From contig OZ001293.3 of assembly GCA_963921275.4 (NCBI GenBank), positions 4,416,001 through 4,480,000 on the forward strand: a DNA stretch of 64,000 nucleotides. The letters run 5' to 3'. Position 1 is the first letter of the stretch. Every line of letters begins with the position of its first letter. Below are positions 2,685 through 16,909 of the stretch, piece after piece. The notes beneath the pieces are model-generated. The model ran no database searches. It was given only the letters and a program-made list of their open reading frames with translations, and was not told the origin of the DNA. Made by a program: the position numbers and the translations under genes. The stretch comes from an uncultured Hormoscilla sp. (GTDB lineage: Bacteria > Cyanobacteriota > Cyanobacteriia > Cyanobacteriales > Desertifilaceae).

Positions 2685-3435
2685 AACATGAGTATTATAG
2701 CCCAGCCCAAGCAGCTAACCTTTTGGGAGTGCATCCAGAGTCCGGAAGAAGGTGGGAAAGAGAAGGAAAAATCACGTCGTACAGGACGCCGAGTGGGCAG
2801 CGCCGCTTCCTCAAAAGGGAAATCGAGGGATTGCTCCTCATCGGGTTGCCAACTACAACTGTTTGTTATGCAAGGGTCTCAAGCTATTCCCAACGTGAAG
2901 ATGCAAGAGCCGACAACTTGAATACCTGCGCCTTCACTATCCAGAGGCGGAGTTCATTTCTGAAATTGGAGGGGGGCTTAATTTTAAGCGGCGGAAGTTC
3001 AAAGCCATTTTGGAACGAATTGTCGAGCAGGATATCCAGCGGCTTGTCGTTGCCCACCGCGACAGACTCTGCCGATTTGGATGGGAACTGGTTGAGTGGT
3101 TATGCAAATACAATGCAGTCCAACTCGTGGTTCTCAATGAACAACAACTCAGTCCAGAGCAAGAGCTTGTTCAGGATATGCTGTCCATCATCCATTGCTT
3201 CAGTTCTCGGCTCTACGGTCTCCGAAAGTACAGAAAAGAAATCAGCTCGAAAGTACGGGAAGAATCAATTCAAGAAAAGCCGGAATGTTCAGCCGAACAG
3301 TGTCCGAAAAATCCCGTTATTTCCCGATCGGGAACTTCACGCTATTTGGAAGCAATGACTAGCTGCTTATCGCTGGGTTTATAATCAGTGCGTTGAATTT
3401 TACAATAAGGGTCGCTCTCTGGCACCCAAGCAGTC
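2610..3435 (+). mobile_element. tnpA: Degenerate IS607 element (frameshifted serine-recombinase tnpA 2681-3384 plus tnpB 5' fragment)
   Basis: HTH start, YARVSS and VAHRDRLCRFG motifs in two frames. The overlapping tnpB stub (KIPLFPD...WKQ*LAAYRWVYN) has an in-frame TGA. TAATAAAGC repeats mark the left end. Confidence 0.85.
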
Positions 3436-10678: not shown

Positions 10679-11344
10679 ATGAAATTAGTCACCACAGACA
10701 TATTTTTTGCAGGACTGGCCGCTGCTATTGGCGTGAGTATTACCCAAACCACCGATGTCAATCTGGCTGCTATTTACATTGAATATATACAGAGGACAGC
10801 ACAAAGGGCTCGTCCCAAACAGTCAAACTATAACAAAGAGAGGGAGGAAATTATGAGATTAATCACCACAAGCATATTTTTTGCAGGACTGGCCGCTGCT
10901 ATTGGCGTGAGTATTACCCAAACCACCGAAGGCGGCTGGAACATCAAAACTCCACCCATTCCGGCTATGAATATTACCATTAACACGGGGGAACAACCTA
11001 CTACTCCAGTCCAGGAGGTAATACCCATCTCCGAAAAATTATCCGAAAAAGTCTCAGAAGAACCTGAGTTTTATCAATCCTTGCCCAATCGGGATGTAGT
11101 ATTTGCCCCAGGAACCGACCATCTGGATGTTTCTGGTGAAGGCGCAACCCAGCTCAACTACAATATAATCGCCTTAGAAGGCCAGCAGATTGTAATTACC
11201 AGCTTGTCCGGTCAGGTAAAAACGGAGGTATTTACACCCAGCGGCGGTTTGTTGAGTGAAAATGAACCTTTACCGATAACCGGGAAATATACAATCAACG
11301 TTAGGGCTGCCAGTCCTTACACCCTCAGAATAAAAGTCAATTGA
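10679..11344 (+). CDS. Secreted hypothetical protein with C-terminal PPC-like beta domain; N-terminus duplicated in frame
   Basis: The signal-like segment occurs twice (174-bp offset, second ATG at 10853). C-terminus LPITGKYTINV...YTLRIKV. Confidence 0.55.
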   Translation: MKLVTTDIFFAGLAAAIGVSITQTTDVNLAAIYIEYIQRTAQRARPKQSNYNKEREEIMRLITTSIFFAGLAAAIGVSITQTTEGGWNIKTPPIPAMNITINTGEQPTTPVQEVIPISEKLSEKVSEEPEFYQSLPNRDVVFAPGTDHLDVSGEGATQLNYNIIALEGQQIVITSLSGQVKTEVFTPSGGLLSENEPLPITGKYTINVRAASPYTLRIKVN

Positions 11345-11813
11345 CGATCGACCGTCTCAATTGTCAGTACATCCCGACATAAGTAAATGAATTAAGAAAC
11401 CCGGTTTTTCCAAAAAACAGGGTTTCTGCGCTACTGATGACCGGGCCCTGTCTCCGGGGACAGGGTTTGGGTTTAAGCTGACTCATATCAAATCTACTGG
11501 ACAGTGCGAAGTTCTATAGGGAACTGCTTGAAAGGAAGCGGGTTTGGGCCCGATCGACCGACCATGAGCAATTCGCGAGCTCATAAAGGCTGTAAGCCTT
11601 TCGTCCCAAGGGGTTCAGCTTTTAGGATCGGTCCGATTTTCAGAGAACTTCGCACTCTCCAGTCAAATCGAGTTGAATGCCCATAATAAAAAATGAGCGC
11701 AACTGTAGGTTGGGTTGAAGCACGAAACCCAACCGCACCAAGGCATGTTGGGTTTCTTCCCGCTAAGCCCAACCTACAGTATTAAGATTATCCAGATGTG
11801 ATATCAGATACAT

Positions 11814-13505
11814 TTAACCCGAAAAAATCTTGTAATTGCCGGAAATTTCTGAGTATGGCACAATCTGGAATGAAGCTATCAGGCCAGATGCGGAGGTATC
11901 TCTCAAAGCCTTCAACAAAATGTTGAAAGCGCCATTAATATCACGACTAATAGTGTGACCACATGAGGGACAAATAAATCGTTTGTTGCCTCCTAACTTT
12001 ATGTGAATGTGCCCACATTTTGAGCAAGTTTTGCTGGTGTACTCTTCCGTCACGTCTACTACAACACAGCCGTATTTAGCTGCTTGATGCTTGAACGTTT
12101 GCTTAAAACGGTAATGAGACCATGTAACCATTTTACGTGCTGTCTTAGTTGACAACCGTCGCTTGCCTCGTTTGACCATATTTTTAACCTCAAATGTAGG
12201 CAAAAATATGACTTTGTACTTGGTGCATAGATAGTTGGCTGCTTTCTTATGCAGTTCATCAACCAAGTTACGAATCTTAACCCGAATCTTTTGTGCCGCC
12301 TTTCGCAGGCAGTGCCGTAGCCGCTTAAATTGGCGTCCTTTAGATAAGCCGATTCGAGACATTAGCCGATCGAGATGACTGGCTAACCGATAGATACGAC
12401 CCATATCAGACTTGCCAACCTCCCAAATTTCTTGACCGTCAAACCCAGTTAGAAATGTCCTGACACCTGGATCAAGGGCGATGGCTAGCTCACTGTTTAA
12501 TGGTTCCAGTTTAGGCACGTCTATGGCATAACAGATAAACCAACGTCCTCTGTCTAGTACCAATGTAGGCTCATGGTGCATTTTGTCTATAATTGGCTCA
12601 CTTGCTTTGAACCTTAATCCTTTGGTCTGTGTTGGATAAAAATTTCCTTTTTTCCAGTTATTTTTCTGAAACCGGATAGACTTAACAGATTCACGTACTG
12701 AGCGAAATTTAGCATCTCCTCCTGATTTTCTTGCTGCTTTGTGTGCCTCATAAGCCTGAAATACCGCCAATTGGCGTGGGCTATATGGGGTTTGACTTAC
12801 CCAAGATGGAGCCATATCTATGACCGTTTTGCGTAGGTCATATTTACCAATCTTCTGATTTTTGAGTATAGCAATGGCTTGATTGAAGCACCATCTGGCT
12901 GCTGATATCCATTGAAACCAGGTTTTAGCTAATGCCGTTTCTGGGTAAACTCGAATCTTCTTTGATAGCAGATTTGTACTTCCTGAGTCCATAGAGTCTG
13001 CAACTGAAGACATGGACGATGACAAGGATATCCTCAACCATTTCTCGTTCTGGAGATAGGTCACTTCGGTTGAGAACCACGAGTTGGCAATCTTTTTGTT
13101 GACAGAGCCACTCGATAAGGTCAAGTCCAAACCTGACAAGTCTGTCTTTGTGGCAGACCACAACTTCTTTGACATCTCCTGACATGACTTGTCCCAGAAT
13201 GGATAAAAACCCTTTGCGTTTGTAGTTGAGTCCTGATCCGATTTCCTTGACAAGTTTTCCGTCTGTGAACAAGGATTGCAAATAGTCGGCTTGCCGTTCA
13301 AGGTCTGACTTTTGCTTATATGAACTGACTCTGGCGTAGAGGATTCTGATTCTTGGGGAGCCGTCTGGATTAATGACGGAGTCGATGTCGTATCGTCGAT
13401 GACCAGCGGGAGTTCTAATTGTCTGTATTTTTCCGTCTCTATCCCAGTTTCGGAGTGTTTTTTCCGAGACCTGAAGGACTTGTGACGCTTCTCTCGGTGT
13501 GGCAT
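11814..13505 (-). CDS. tnpB: IS607 TnpB of pro-Fanzor type (true start uncertain)
   Basis: RuvC-I ALDPGVRTFLT; IFLPTF where the canonical Glu would be; VTEEYTSKTCSKCG; CPSCG...RDINGAFNI. Confidence 0.9.
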   Translation of the reverse strand: MPHREKRHKSFRSRKKHSETGIETEKYRQLELPLVIDDTTSTPSLIQTAPQESESSTPESVHISKSQTLNGKPTICNPCSQTENLSRKSDQDSTTNAKGFYPFWDKSCQEMSKKLWSATKTDLSGLDLTLSSGSVNKKIANSWFSTEVTYLQNEKWLRISLSSSMSSVADSMDSGSTNLLSKKIRVYPETALAKTWFQWISAARWCFNQAIAILKNQKIGKYDLRKTVIDMAPSWVSQTPYSPRQLAVFQAYEAHKAARKSGGDAKFRSVRESVKSIRFQKNNWKKGNFYPTQTKGLRFKASEPIIDKMHHEPTLVLDRGRWFICYAIDVPKLEPLNSELAIALDPGVRTFLTGFDGQEIWEVGKSDMGRIYRLASHLDRLMSRIGLSKGRQFKRLRHCLRKAAQKIRVKIRNLVDELHKKAANYLCTKYKVIFLPTFEVKNMVKRGKRRLSTKTARKMVTWSHYRFKQTFKHQAAKYGCVVVDVTEEYTSKTCSKCGHIHIKLGGNKRFICPSCGHTISRDINGAFNILLKALRDTSASGLIASFQIVPYSEISGNYKIFSG

Positions 13506-13512
13506 ATCTCAT
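12925..13512 (-). CDS. tnpA: IS607 serine-recombinase transposase
   Basis: MerR-like HTH (RTPAGHRRY), LYARVSS, EIGSGLNYKRKG, HKDRLVRFG. Confidence 0.93.
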   Translation of the reverse strand: MRYATPREASQVLQVSEKTLRNWDRDGKIQTIRTPAGHRRYDIDSVINPDGSPRIRILYARVSSYKQKSDLERQADYLQSLFTDGKLVKEIGSGLNYKRKGFLSILGQVMSGDVKEVVVCHKDRLVRFGLDLIEWLCQQKDCQLVVLNRSDLSPEREMVEDILVIVHVFSCRLYGLRKYKSAIKEDSSLPRNGIS

Positions 13513-13597
13513 GATGTTTTTGTTTGCACTATCAATATTATACCACACGCGAGAATATATTTCCGGAAAAATATATAAAATTCCTGGAAATCATACT

Positions 13598-14536
13598 TTA
13601 GTTATCAACACTCATTTCTTCGCACTGTTCCAGTCTGTGGGAGATCGCCACCAGACTATCTGCGGCGGTAGATGTACCCACACCATAACAAGCGCGTCGC
13701 CGCCAGGCGATCACGGGGAGATGTCCTTCCGGAGCATTAGCAGAGAAACTCAGTTCATCATAATTGAGCCAGTTTTCCTGCTGGCGCCAGCCCACCCGAT
13801 CGCAAAAATCCATATAATTGTTCTCCAGGCTGGATAATATTTGCCTCTGCACATTGAAGCCGAAGCGTCCACCGCTATACTCGGTCCAGAGTTGGTCGAT
13901 CGTCTGTAAGTCGGCACAAGGAAAATTTTCGATATCTTCCAAGCGCAGCCAGCCTTCAGCTTCTCGATCGACTACAATGAGCATTACTAGCCAGGTATAT
14001 TCATTAGCTTCTTGCCATCTTCCTGCGGCCAAGAACTGGTCTAGCTGACTATAGTCCATCCCTACCTCAGACTGCCAGCTAGTTTCTGTAGACCCAGGAC
14101 TGAAGAATTCCAGTTTTGTTAAGATCTCTTTGAGCATGGACATAAGTTCTACTCTTTGAGAACTTGCGAGTTCCAGTTCCTGTTTCAGTTCCTGGCGTTC
14201 GATCTCCCCCTGCTGCAAAGCGGCTTCCAACTTATTCAACCGGTTTTCCAGCCTCAAGACCGCCGACTGCAGAAACTCCTGCTGTGCTAAAGTCATACTA
14301 GACAATAGTATGTTGGGTGGTTCCGACTCCTGCAAGGGCTCCGCTGGTTGGTTGTCACGGTTTTTCGCACCAGACTTCTTGGTATCAGTATTCTTTACCG
14401 CCGAACTTTCCGCGTCAACGTTGATAATAATGGTGCCACTGGGCAACTGGTAACCGTTGAGGGCTCCTGACTTCCACCAGCGCCAAGCTGTTCTGTATGA
14501 GACGCCCACTTCACGGGCATAATCTGCTAGTTTCAC
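13598..14536 (-). CDS. IS607-like HTH + coiled coil + GUN4 domain protein
   Basis: N-terminus MKLADYAREVGVSYRTAWRWWKSG. GUN4 motifs DYSQLDQFLAAGRWQEAN, FPCADLQTIDQLW...SGGRFGF..Q, APEGHLP. Confidence 0.85.
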   Translation of the reverse strand: MKLADYAREVGVSYRTAWRWWKSGALNGYQLPSGTIIINVDAESSAVKNTDTKKSGAKNRDNQPAEPLQESEPPNILLSSMTLAQQEFLQSAVLRLENRLNKLEAALQQGEIERQELKQELELASSQRVELMSMLKEILTKLEFFSPGSTETSWQSEVGMDYSQLDQFLAAGRWQEANEYTWLVMLIVVDREAEGWLRLEDIENFPCADLQTIDQLWTEYSGGRFGFNVQRQILSSLENNYMDFCDRVGWRQQENWLNYDELSFSANAPEGHLPVIAWRRRACYGVGTSTAADSLVAISHRLEQCEEMSVDN

Positions 14537-14653: not shown

Positions 14654-16909
14654 TTGTCAGTACCATACCTAGGGGTCATGGCTAATTCCAGTTTACAACT
14701 CCCAGAGATAGTCGATCGGCAAAGGGCAGAGGATATTATCATTCACCTGGCCTATTTGCAATACCAGCAACAAGGGGCGATCGCCTCTCGGGAAGACTTA
14801 GCCCCGGACATACAAGCAGCTGCTTGTCAGCTAGTCTCGCGCCTCAAACAACTGGATGCCATTGCCTCCTGCTGCCAACAGAGTCCCATTGGCAAACTGC
14901 TACCAGGTGCTCTGTACGTCCATGTTACAGCAATAGAAGCCCTCGACCCCCTGCTGCGGCTCTACGAAAGATGCGCCCGGGACATTGCTGGGGATGTTTC
15001 GGAGGCCACGATCGTTAAATTCCACCTGGACAAACAGAAAATCTCCTATCTATTCTACCCGGACTTCGACAGGGACGCCCATCCTCTACTCGAAGCTAGT
15101 ATCCAGGTTGACTTTTGTCAAGCCCAAAACAACTACCGAGATTATAGCACTAGTAATAATCCTCCCATTCTCCACCGCAAAGATGCTTTTGTCACCCCAG
15201 ACTATCCCTATTATGAAGAATTTGCCCAGCTTACCCGAGAGGAAGAAGAGTTAGGACTCCTGGACAAGGGTCGGGGTTTTTCCATCGGGACGCTGCAAAG
15301 TTGGCTAGACTGCTTAGAAGCCCATGGCGTGAAAATCGAAAATCACCATGTTATCCAAGGACCAGATTTTGTCAGGGCATCAGTAGCGCCAAAAATCGAA
15401 CGCCACAAAGCTGCCATGGTCCGCAAGGATCTTTCTCGTCCTGTCCGTTTAGCTTTAGAAGCGGAACTCTTCACCCCAGATACGACTTTCTTTGACTACG
15501 GTTGTGGATATGAGGGGGATATCCAACGCATAGTCTTTCTCGGCTATGCCAGTTCCGGTTGGGACCCCTATTACTGCCCCGATCGCCCTTTAGTGAGTGC
15601 GGATATTGTCAACTTAGGTTATGTGATCAATGTAATCGAATGTCAGGAGGAACGTCGGGAAGCATTAATTAAAGCCTGGGAACTCACCCAGAAAGTTTTA
15701 CTGGTATCGGCGCAAGTTTTGATTAATGACCGGAAGGCCGGACAAGTCGCCTATGGTGATGGCATCATTACCAAGCGCAATACCTTTCAGAAATATTTTG
15801 AACAAGAAGAACTGAAAACTTATATTGACCAGATCCTGGGTGTAGATGCAGTTCCCGTGGCCCTGGGAATTTATTTTGTCTTCTCCGACGCAGCACAAGC
15901 TGAGAGTTTCCGCGCCTCTCGCTTTTATTCCCGGGCCAGAACCCCCAGAGTTCGCTTACTCGATAAGAAGTTTGCAGATTATCAAACCATGCTGACTCCT
16001 TTGATGGAGTTCTTTACTAAGCGGGGACGCCTTCCTGTCAGAGGAGAACTTGCTTCTGAGTCGGAAATATTAGCAGAGTTTAGAACTTTGCGTCGCGCTT
16101 TTAAGGTGATTTTACAGGTTACTGACCCAGAAGATTGGGATGCGATCGCTTCCAAGCGGAGTCAGGACTTGCTAGTCTACATCGCCCTCACACATTTTAG
16201 CGGTCGTCCTCAGGCGCGAAACCTCGCCCCCCTAGTAAAAAACGACATCAAAGCATTACTGGGCAGCTACAAATCTGCTTGCCTGCTTGCGGATAAAATG
16301 CTCTTCAGCATTGGCGACCTCAATTGTATCGCTAAATGTTGCGAACATTCCCCTGTGGGCAAGCAGGGCCCCCATGCTTTCTCCGTGCATGTCAATTATC
16401 TGCACCAACTCGACCCCCGACTGCGACTCTACGAAGGCTGTGCCAACCGCACCATTGGGCGCTTAGATGGAGCGACTGTCATCAAGTTCCATACTAACAT
16501 ACCGAAAATCTCTTATCTATTCTATCCCGACTTCGATACCGACCCCCATCCCATTTTACAGACCTGCATGCAGATTGACTTGCGGGATTTAAGCGTCAAT
16601 TATCAAGACTACAAGCATGTCCATAACCCTCCCATTCTACATCAAAAAGACCAGTTAGTAGGACCAGATTACCCGAATTATGAAAAATTCGCCCGACTCA
16701 GCCAACTGGAAGCAGACTGGGGACTTTTAGATGATTTATCTGCGATCGGCACCCGTCAGGGATGGCTGCAATGTCTGGAAGCACATTGTGCTACGATCGA
16801 TAATTATCGTCTCTATTGGCGCAAAGATGCCGATTATTATCGCCTCAGAGTTCTCAAGGCTGCTGTCAATAACCGCCGAGGAAAAAGAAGAAAGGCACGG
16901 ATGATATAA
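14654..16909 (+). CDS. DNA phosphorothioation-associated putative methyltransferase
   Basis: ERHKAAMVRKDLSRPV, FFDYGCG, GWDPYY, VNLGYVINVIEC, TFQKYFEQ, plus duplicated KISYLFYPDFD..PHP / NPPILH domains. Likely start at ATG 14678. Confidence 0.85.
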   Translation: MSVPYLGVMANSSLQLPEIVDRQRAEDIIIHLAYLQYQQQGAIASREDLAPDIQAAACQLVSRLKQLDAIASCCQQSPIGKLLPGALYVHVTAIEALDPLLRLYERCARDIAGDVSEATIVKFHLDKQKISYLFYPDFDRDAHPLLEASIQVDFCQAQNNYRDYSTSNNPPILHRKDAFVTPDYPYYEEFAQLTREEEELGLLDKGRGFSIGTLQSWLDCLEAHGVKIENHHVIQGPDFVRASVAPKIERHKAAMVRKDLSRPVRLALEAELFTPDTTFFDYGCGYEGDIQRIVFLGYASSGWDPYYCPDRPLVSADIVNLGYVINVIECQEERREALIKAWELTQKVLLVSAQVLINDRKAGQVAYGDGIITKRNTFQKYFEQEELKTYIDQILGVDAVPVALGIYFVFSDAAQAESFRASRFYSRARTPRVRLLDKKFADYQTMLTPLMEFFTKRGRLPVRGELASESEILAEFRTLRRAFKVILQVTDPEDWDAIASKRSQDLLVYIALTHFSGRPQARNLAPLVKNDIKALLGSYKSACLLADKMLFSIGDLNCIAKCCEHSPVGKQGPHAFSVHVNYLHQLDPRLRLYEGCANRTIGRLDGATVIKFHTNIPKISYLFYPDFDTDPHPILQTCMQIDLRDLSVNYQDYKHVHNPPILHQKDQLVGPDYPNYEKFARLSQLEADWGLLDDLSAIGTRQGWLQCLEAHCATIDNYRLYWRKDADYYRLRVLKAAVNNRRGKRRKARMI

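Follow-up and report, generated by a model that had tools for sequence, protein, structure and literature searches.

We consider it highly probable that the 64,000-nucleotide stretch of DNA analyzed here (the window; contig OZ001293.3 of an uncultured Hormoscilla sp.) holds a recently spread IS607 element in which the tnpB frame runs over most of tnpA, encoding a likely RNA-guided pro-Fanzor nuclease with a Fanzor2-type N-terminal domain that was likely overprinted on the transposase gene. Nucleases of this kind are known, but the architecture with an overprinted N-terminal domain is apparently not in print. The features of the element are collected in Table 1.

Table 1. Features of the IS607 element in window coordinates; residue numbers are those of the 563-aa ORF at 11814..13505 (-).
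Feature	Position	Strand	Basis
IS607-family element, counted with both terminal TG crossover dinucleotides	11805..13610	(-)	Empty alleles, 5 full copies
tnpA, IS607 serine transposase (MerR-type HTH + resolvase), 195 aa	12925..13512	(-)	Pfam PF00376, PF00239
Full tnpB (pro-Fanzor) ORF, 563 aa	11814..13505	(-)	ORF listing; frame +1 relative to tnpA over 581 nt
Residues 1-99, predicted disordered leader	13209..13505	(-)	pLDDT <50; dN/dS 1.1-1.45
Residues 100-177, Fanzor2-like N-terminal domain (likely) over TnpA resolvase domain	12975..13208	(-)	Motifs, conservation, fold range
RuvC-I D345-P346-G347	12465..12473	(-)	Sequence, alignment
Relocated RuvC-II E487	12045..12047	(-)	Aligned with ApmFz2 E467; invariant among homologues
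C4 zinc finger C494/C497/C512/C515	11961..12026	(-)	PF07282
RuvC-III D522	11940..11942	(-)	Sequence; invariant among homologues
Predicted omegaRNA scaffold	11805..11945	(-)	Covariation; 5' bound approximate
Predicted guide	11785..11804	(-)	Equals sequence after TG in empty allele; length by analogy with ISXfa1
Target bases TGAG ahead of TG crossover; jointly predicted TAM (R)RSTG	13611..13614	(-)	Left junctions
Left end, imperfect TTTCC(A/G)G repeats	13560..13608	(-)	Seen by eye

The TnpB protein and its relatives

Judged from its sequence, the TnpB is a pro-Fanzor and a member of a group already described, a membership that is ordinary in itself. The first-pass annotation had reached the same identity, pointing to a DPG, a Pro in IFLPTF, and a Glu in VTEEYTSKTC, to a linked IS607 transposase, and to two intact ORFs, and all of this holds: the three motifs are present and are placed by alignment, the upstream TnpA matches NF033518 at 194 bits (cutoff, 110), and the tnpA and tnpB frames are both open. 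P436 of IFLPTF (12200) aligns with the Glu of the ISDra2 TnpB "IIGTEH," the canonical Glu being absent, and E487 within VTEEYTSKTC (12047) stands six residues ahead of zinc-finger residue C494 (E487-x6-C494). Across 75 aligned homologues, P436, E487, and D522 are invariant and D345 is kept in at least 90%. Because the combination of DPG and a shifted Glu occurs in <1% of 140,000 TnpBs (accessible text of bioRxiv 10.1101/2023.08.09.552727) and is nearly invariant in the 75 homologues, it is not due to chance. Many homologues of 540 to 600 aa span 95 to 100% of the 563-aa ORF.

The best PDB sequence match of the TnpB protein is ApmFz2 (9B0L; E = 1.8e-26 versus 1e-10 for ISDra2), which is also the best fold match of the modeled protein (Z = 27.2 versus 25.2 for ISDra2). 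In a quick tree of 57 proteins, midpoint-rooted only, a phylogeny being among the checks that the first-pass annotation had proposed, the TnpB joins bacterial, phage, and giant-virus proteins with DPG and a shifted Glu (SH-aLRT 99), apart from canonical TnpBs, represented by seven IS607 proteins and no IS605 rows. Near relatives from Laspinema and Coleofasciculus are labeled pro-Fanzor in Table S5 of Yoon et al. (PMC10711439, as accessible), where WP_263012505.1 and WP_052307456.1 are visibly close relatives of the window TnpB; together with the shifted Glu and DPG, the IS607 TnpA, and the match to 9B0L, these uphold the pro-Fanzor identity. The closest loci, 86 to 92% alike, belong to the cyanobacterial hosts Prochloron, Hormoscilla, Phormidium, Laspinema, and Coleofasciculus. 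The element is hosted by a bacterial chromosome and hence lacks the eukaryotic or eukaryotic-virus host of Fanzor2 proper. RNA-guided DNA cutting by the TnpB is a prediction.

The tnpB frame overlaps tnpA

The first-pass annotation had started tnpB near 13000 and described a compact protein of 392 aa. We observe instead that the frame is open 171 codons further upstream, to an ATG at 13505 that lies seven bases past the tnpA ATG; of the 588 nt of tnpA, 581 are covered by this +1 frame. The protein is likely longer, with tnpA also encoding its Fanzor2-like N-terminal domain. The motifs of this region are PFW..S..LW at residues 102 to 116 and NSWF at 141 to 144.

With respect to the conservation of the overlap, counts were taken from 74 intact TnpAs dereplicated at 90%, a set whose identity to the window copy goes down to about 40% and which includes GVMAG-labeled giant-virus contigs; 45 of these then carry a TnpB with the full pro-Fanzor pattern. 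The +1 frame is stop-free across the last 95 tnpA codons in 45/45 pro-Fanzor elements (0.04 expected under uniform synonymous recoding) and across the whole gene in 39/45 (about 1 expected), with leader stops in the other 6, while the +2 frame is open in 0/45 (mean, 13.4 stops); these elements are kin, and the counts overstate their independence. Since most loci had been ranked with the long protein (L030 to L188 against the full-length protein, which favors elements with the N-terminal domain), a control set was drawn by TnpA family alone. Among its 15 dereplicated loci, the 13 that are not pro-Fanzors (5 with a canonical TnpB and 8 with none found) have 3 to 14 stops, and the 2 pro-Fanzors have 0. 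One IS607 element (L107:1406-3068), in which the Glu is shifted and RuvC-I reads DLG, has neither the overlap nor the N-terminal domain and is a possible outgroup for dating the overlap.

An alternative that we regard as unlikely is that the domain is real but is reached through an internal GTG/TTG start or a +1 ribosomal frameshift from tnpA, giving an HTH-TnpB fusion, and not from ATG 13505. This ATG is formed by Tyr3 of tnpA and the next base and coincides with a conserved TnpA codon, with no obvious ribosome-binding site; in-frame GTG/TTG codons lie at 69 and 85, residues 1 to 99 are unconstrained, and frameshifts in two relatives (L004 and L014) make the TnpB frame continuous with the TnpA HTH. 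Leader residues 2 to 91 have a dN/dS of 1.1 to 1.45, their amino acids being unconstrained though the frame is usually stop-free. However, a leader that is stop-free in 39/45 elements, where about 1 is expected, is what translation from the 5' end predicts, and the elements with a leader stop carry an ATG between that stop and the domain.

Purifying selection on the second frame

The TnpB frame stays under purifying selection after the death of tnpA. Six non-autonomous elements on viral contigs keep only the tnpA stretch under residues 98 to 177, and in these the TnpB frame has a dN/dS of 0.24 (core, 0.20) and 0 stops, versus 0.69 and 20 stops for the TnpA frame; most of the six have gained an ATG right ahead of the domain motif. 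In three cyanobacterial non-autonomous elements, the same comparison gives 0 versus 3 stops but no contrast in dN/dS (0.68 versus 0.72). In intact elements, TnpA synonymous codons are fixed under W104, S112, L115, S142, W143, and F144; the Val codon under W143 is GTG in 38/41 cases, against 33/354 in the background, and W143 is found in 55/60 elements versus 0/14 controls. Furthermore, viral homologues without a TnpA, including the GVMAG-labeled L052, L059, and L064, have the P(F/W)W..S motif at or near their N terminus, and the domain profile is matched by 101/115 distant representatives with at least 75 residues before the core.

Likely correspondence to the N-terminal domain of ApmFz2

Residues 100 to 177 likely correspond, in the model and by their motifs, to the extra N-terminal domain of Fanzor2. 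According to the accessible text of PMC11832414, this domain comprises residues 53 to 130 of ApmFz2, is absent from other TnpB structures, and touches the omegaRNA pseudoknot through N82 and S83. The ApmFz2 segments ISKWIPT and N82-S83-W84-Y85 are matched here by MSKKLWSAT and N141-S142-W143-F144. AlphaFold with a deep alignment gives a pLDDT of 86 to 87 at residues 107 to 116 and 137 to 146, and the part that matches the thumb is modeled poorly (<50 at 156 to 173). VIA places model residues 100 to 539 on ApmFz2 53 to 518 (Z = 27.2; rmsd, 4.3; 398 aligned); ApmFz2 is the sole match beginning before residue 135 among the VIA matches listed, and TnpB and Cas12f chains align to the model only from about residue 176.

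When the N-terminal region was used by itself as an HMM, no PDB chain matched at E up to 10, ApmFz2 included, and hhalign with an ApmFz2-like viral protein (L254) was weak (probability, 16.7%; 29 columns). The link to the ApmFz2 domain therefore depends on short motifs, on where they lie, and on a structural alignment given only as residue ranges. The RuvC-R part of the Fanzor2 N-terminal domain is likewise matched in motif and fold range, with a weak profile match and a low-confidence thumb. L254, the sole ApmFz2-like viral locus retrieved, has no tnpA ORF and so offers no instance of the overlap in the ApmFz2-like subgroup.

The tnpA frame is older than the frame overlapping it, given that non-overlapped IS607 TnpAs and a wider resolvase family exist, and for this reason the domain is best read as overprinted. 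This suggests that the Fanzor2 N-terminal domain was born inside another gene, tnpA. We think it probable that the N-terminal domain resolved by cryo-EM in Fanzor2 originated de novo, in an ancestor shared by pro-Fanzors and Fanzor2, from the +1 frame of an IS607 transposase gene, that pro-Fanzors are systematically under-annotated by 80 to 170 residues and need the domain to hold their guide RNA, and that the disordered Fanzor2 N terminus with its nuclear signal derives from the same overprinted leader.

It seems quite doubtful, by comparison, that the overprinted region is functional without being homologous to the ApmFz2 domain, or that the overlap arose in giant viruses and then reached cyanobacteria. 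The sequence-level match to ApmFz2 is weak, as nonhomology would have it, but the W.P and NSW motifs are common to both proteins, with order and location preserved, the structural range matches, and GVMAG elements with an intact tnpA (L033, L051, L056, L060, and L066) show the same overlap. A viral origin would agree with the position of the bacterial and phage group among viral lineages in the quick midpoint-rooted tree, and Supplementary Text 1 of PMC10711439, in its accessible part, likewise leaves the direction of transfer undecided; the tnpA frame is nevertheless older either way, non-overlapped IS607 TnpAs existing.

Element ends and copies

The IS607 element is recently spread, with five full copies in the genome (99.4 to 99.6% identity) in addition to one 3' half and one left-end remnant; the 563-aa ORF is kept in four of the full copies and is frameshifted in one. 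Full-length sister elements (89 to 91% identity) occupy other sites in same-genus genomes (L229, L230, and L233; G201 and G204).

Mapping the ends was a further check proposed by the first-pass annotation, and they are now fixed at the TG by empty alleles (...AATGA-GTG-ATA...) in three of the four same-genus genomes with the flanking gene (L220, L221, and L223); the fourth diverges at the insertion point. Comparison of the empty alleles with the filled site, TGAG-TG-TTGATAAC...TATC-TG-ATATCAC, thus indicates recombination at TG with a net insertion of 1804 bp and no target duplication. In-silico frame restoration did not distinguish a 0-base from a 3-base shared core, and the empty alleles decided. 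The dinucleotide crossover and the lack of a TIR and of a target duplication are IS607 traits evident from the empty alleles; the usual GG core is absent, and we treat the TG core as a variant within IS607 because the transposase is of the IS607 type. The repeats at the left end are likely TnpA binding sites; the repeat finder did not have them among its top families and returned nothing beyond chance-like pairs. In DNA runs X15, X17, X19, and X20, we found no joint skipping the element and hence no circle or excision. The element is also covered by assembled RNA-run contigs (X1 to X4) from relatives with about 90% similarity. Several of these contigs end at 11804-11805, although such contig ends are no sign of expression or of RNA ends.

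The private changes of the window copy are P162S, M229I, and L471F in TnpB and A164V in TnpA, and because of these three TnpB substitutions and one TnpA substitution its activity is less sure than that of the family. We nevertheless find it rather improbable that the family is active and the nuclease of this copy impaired: L471 is conserved in at least 90% and the sister copies are also gaining changes, with 1/5 frameshifted, but the catalytic triad, the zinc finger, the pseudoknot, and both ends are intact, and identity to the sisters is 99.4 to 99.6%.

Right-end RNA, guide, and TAM

A structured right-end RNA with a pseudoknot, a trait of TnpB/OMEGA systems, is predicted from the sequence. 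The right end at 11805 lies nine bases past the stop codon, and the predicted omegaRNA scaffold is therefore inside the coding sequence. A hairpin (11904-11893) displays the loop GAUAC (11900-11896), complementary to GUAUC (11811-11807), in a predicted pseudoknot of a type described for ISDra2, ISXfa1, and ApmFz2 in the accessible texts; with this right end and covarying pseudoknot, the earlier placement of an omegaRNA near 11800 to 11950 was about right. The pseudoknot complementarity is 5/5 in 63/67 loci, the other four probably having wrongly placed ends. The end rule for the groups of L169 and L053 was set by eye, and the independent compensatory cases are therefore L145, L186, and L212. 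In an alignment of 43 sequences (the window and 42 loci, 41 of them from the 63 full-pairing loci and none from the 4 misses), 43/43 form 5/5 pseudoknot pairs, with both-sided changes in four pairs and a covarying hairpin stem, and slid controls are only 27 to 45% paired. The single-sequence RNA fold (z = -2.0) is uninformative by itself, an Rfam scan of 11300-13900 gave two chance snoRNA matches and no omegaRNA family, and a promoter/terminator scan around the element gave signals at or below chance.

The guide of ISXfa1 is 17 nt (accessible text of bioRxiv 10.1101/2023.08.09.552727). For none of the six guides does the genome have another site at which the match extends past TG and 10 bases. 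The left junctions read RRS|TG in 12/12 credible cases, a 13th match (L156) being left out as a false pattern match, whereas ATC-TG stands at the right end of the element itself. If the window element behaves like ISXfa1, its TAM should be close to RRSTG, and the filled site would lack it. A GTG versus CTG contrast, as in ISXfa1, was dropped as the TAM, since relatives insert at C-TG in 7/12 junctions.

As in other IS607 systems, TnpA would excise and integrate a double-stranded DNA circle by serine recombination at TG, and TnpB would bind an RNA that combines the 3' end of its gene with about 17 bases of flanking sequence. TnpB might then recognize an RRSTG-like TAM, which only the empty site regains (the end of the element itself being ATCTG), and cut that site, with repair from the sister chromosome restoring the element; guide-directed cutting and restoration by recombination have been shown for an IS607 IStron, according to the accessible text of that work. 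Translation would begin at ATG 13505 or, failing that, at some point before codon 100, and residues 100 to 177 may pack on the RuvC domain, with N141/S142 contacting the pseudoknot as N82/S83 do in ApmFz2.

Comparison with known systems

The cyanobacterial IS607 pro-Fanzors of Yoon et al. (PMC10711439) have the same DPG, the same Glu six residues before the zinc finger, and an IS607 TnpA, whereas their entries begin just before the core and the window ORF is much longer upstream. In the accessible parts of that paper, Supplementary Text 1 describes pro-Fanzors as shorter and without the Fanzor2 N terminus, the IS607 TnpB tested (ISXfa1) has a typical active site, and the word "overlap" occurs nowhere in the main text and supplement. 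An N-terminal domain inside tnpA contradicts this published view. The reading that TnpB starts at M165/M172 as annotated, the long frame being a by-product of TnpA amino-acid and codon constraints, agrees with that text and with NCBI entries of relatives of about 390 to 400 aa but is largely refuted and, to our minds, most improbable: canonical IS607 TnpAs of about 40% identity have 3 to 14 stops in the same stretch, the frame outlasts tnpA under purifying selection, synonymous TnpA codons are fixed, and both Met residues are absent from many relatives (e.g., L005 and L015).

With the domain read as part of the protein, ApmFz2 (Acanthamoeba polyphaga mimivirus Fanzor2; PDB 9B0L; PMC11832414 and PMC10530073, accessible text) resembles the window TnpB in its D/E/D triad arrangement, its N-terminal ISKW..NSW motifs, its pseudoknot omegaRNA, and its IS607 context. 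Identity is about 24%, however, the window element has a bacterial host, its predicted omegaRNA lies inside the coding sequence and not 200 nt past it, and its predicted TAM is RRSTG and not GGG. The accessible text of PMC11832414 calls the N-terminal domain unique to Fanzor2 and has no occurrence of TnpA. Canonical IS607 elements (H. pylori IS607, ISXfa1, and CboIStron), as described in the accessible literature, share the serine transposase, the dinucleotide crossover without target duplication, and an omegaRNA overlapping the right end; their crossover is described as strictly GG (bioRxiv 10.1101/2023.11.20.567912; PMC13565253), in contrast to TG here, and their RuvC is not rearranged and the +1 frame of their tnpA is closed, the opposite of what we observe. 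Overlapping IS607 ORFs are mentioned only generally in the accessible text of PMC3673617 and PMC9956272. The ISDra2 TnpB (IS200/IS605; PDB 8H1J and 8EXA) has the same WED/REC/RuvC/ZnF fold (Z = 24.5 to 25.2) and a pseudoknotted right-end RNA but differs in its canonical Glu position, its Y1 transposase, and the lack of the N-terminal domain (alignment from residue 176-177).

A search of the open-access literature, covering article text and term look-ups in the main Fanzor papers, returned no report of a Fanzor or pro-Fanzor domain encoded inside tnpA. If our reading is true, a folded, RNA-contacting domain of a solved structure is traced to the alternative frame of a neighboring gene, which would be one of the few cases on record, outside RNA viruses, in which overprinting gave birth to a domain. 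The single distinction drawn by Yoon et al. between Fanzor2 and pro-Fanzors would then vanish, which bears on the entry of Fanzors into eukaryotes, and pro-Fanzors cloned from database annotations would be truncated proteins. For this locus, the ends are known exactly, an empty allele is available, and both a TAM and an omegaRNA structure are predicted.

Neighborhood and other loci

The element lies beside a host gene with a GUN4 domain (13598-14536, minus strand; PF05419, E = 5e-44), in which, by comparison with the empty allele, the insertion swapped the last five residues, DITSG, for VDN. The first 40 or so residues of this gene have no Pfam match, and by eye we take them to resemble an IS607-type HTH. 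The ORF at 14654-16909 (plus strand; 751 aa) contains a segment that is repeated internally; it has no Pfam match and may resemble DNA-phosphorothioation-associated putative methyltransferases. Three short dispersed repeats, each found at dozens of genomic places, adjoin the right end (11388-11440, 11496-11663, and 11665-11790), and another IS607 tnpA, 40 to 51% identical, matched in two pieces, and probably frameshifted, lies at about 2693-3243 (plus strand).

A second, distant pro-Fanzor (33% identity; G000 C1:3054903-3056375) has a tnpA remnant with five stops and an open overprinted domain. At L004:1913-3631 and L014:1955-3472, where frameshifts bring the TnpA HTH region into the TnpB frame, decay or assembly error may be the cause. 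In a number of DPG-type homologues on viral contigs (L053, L062, L097, L077, L079, L080, L087, L093, L102, L052, and L088), the C4 zinc-finger pattern was not found.
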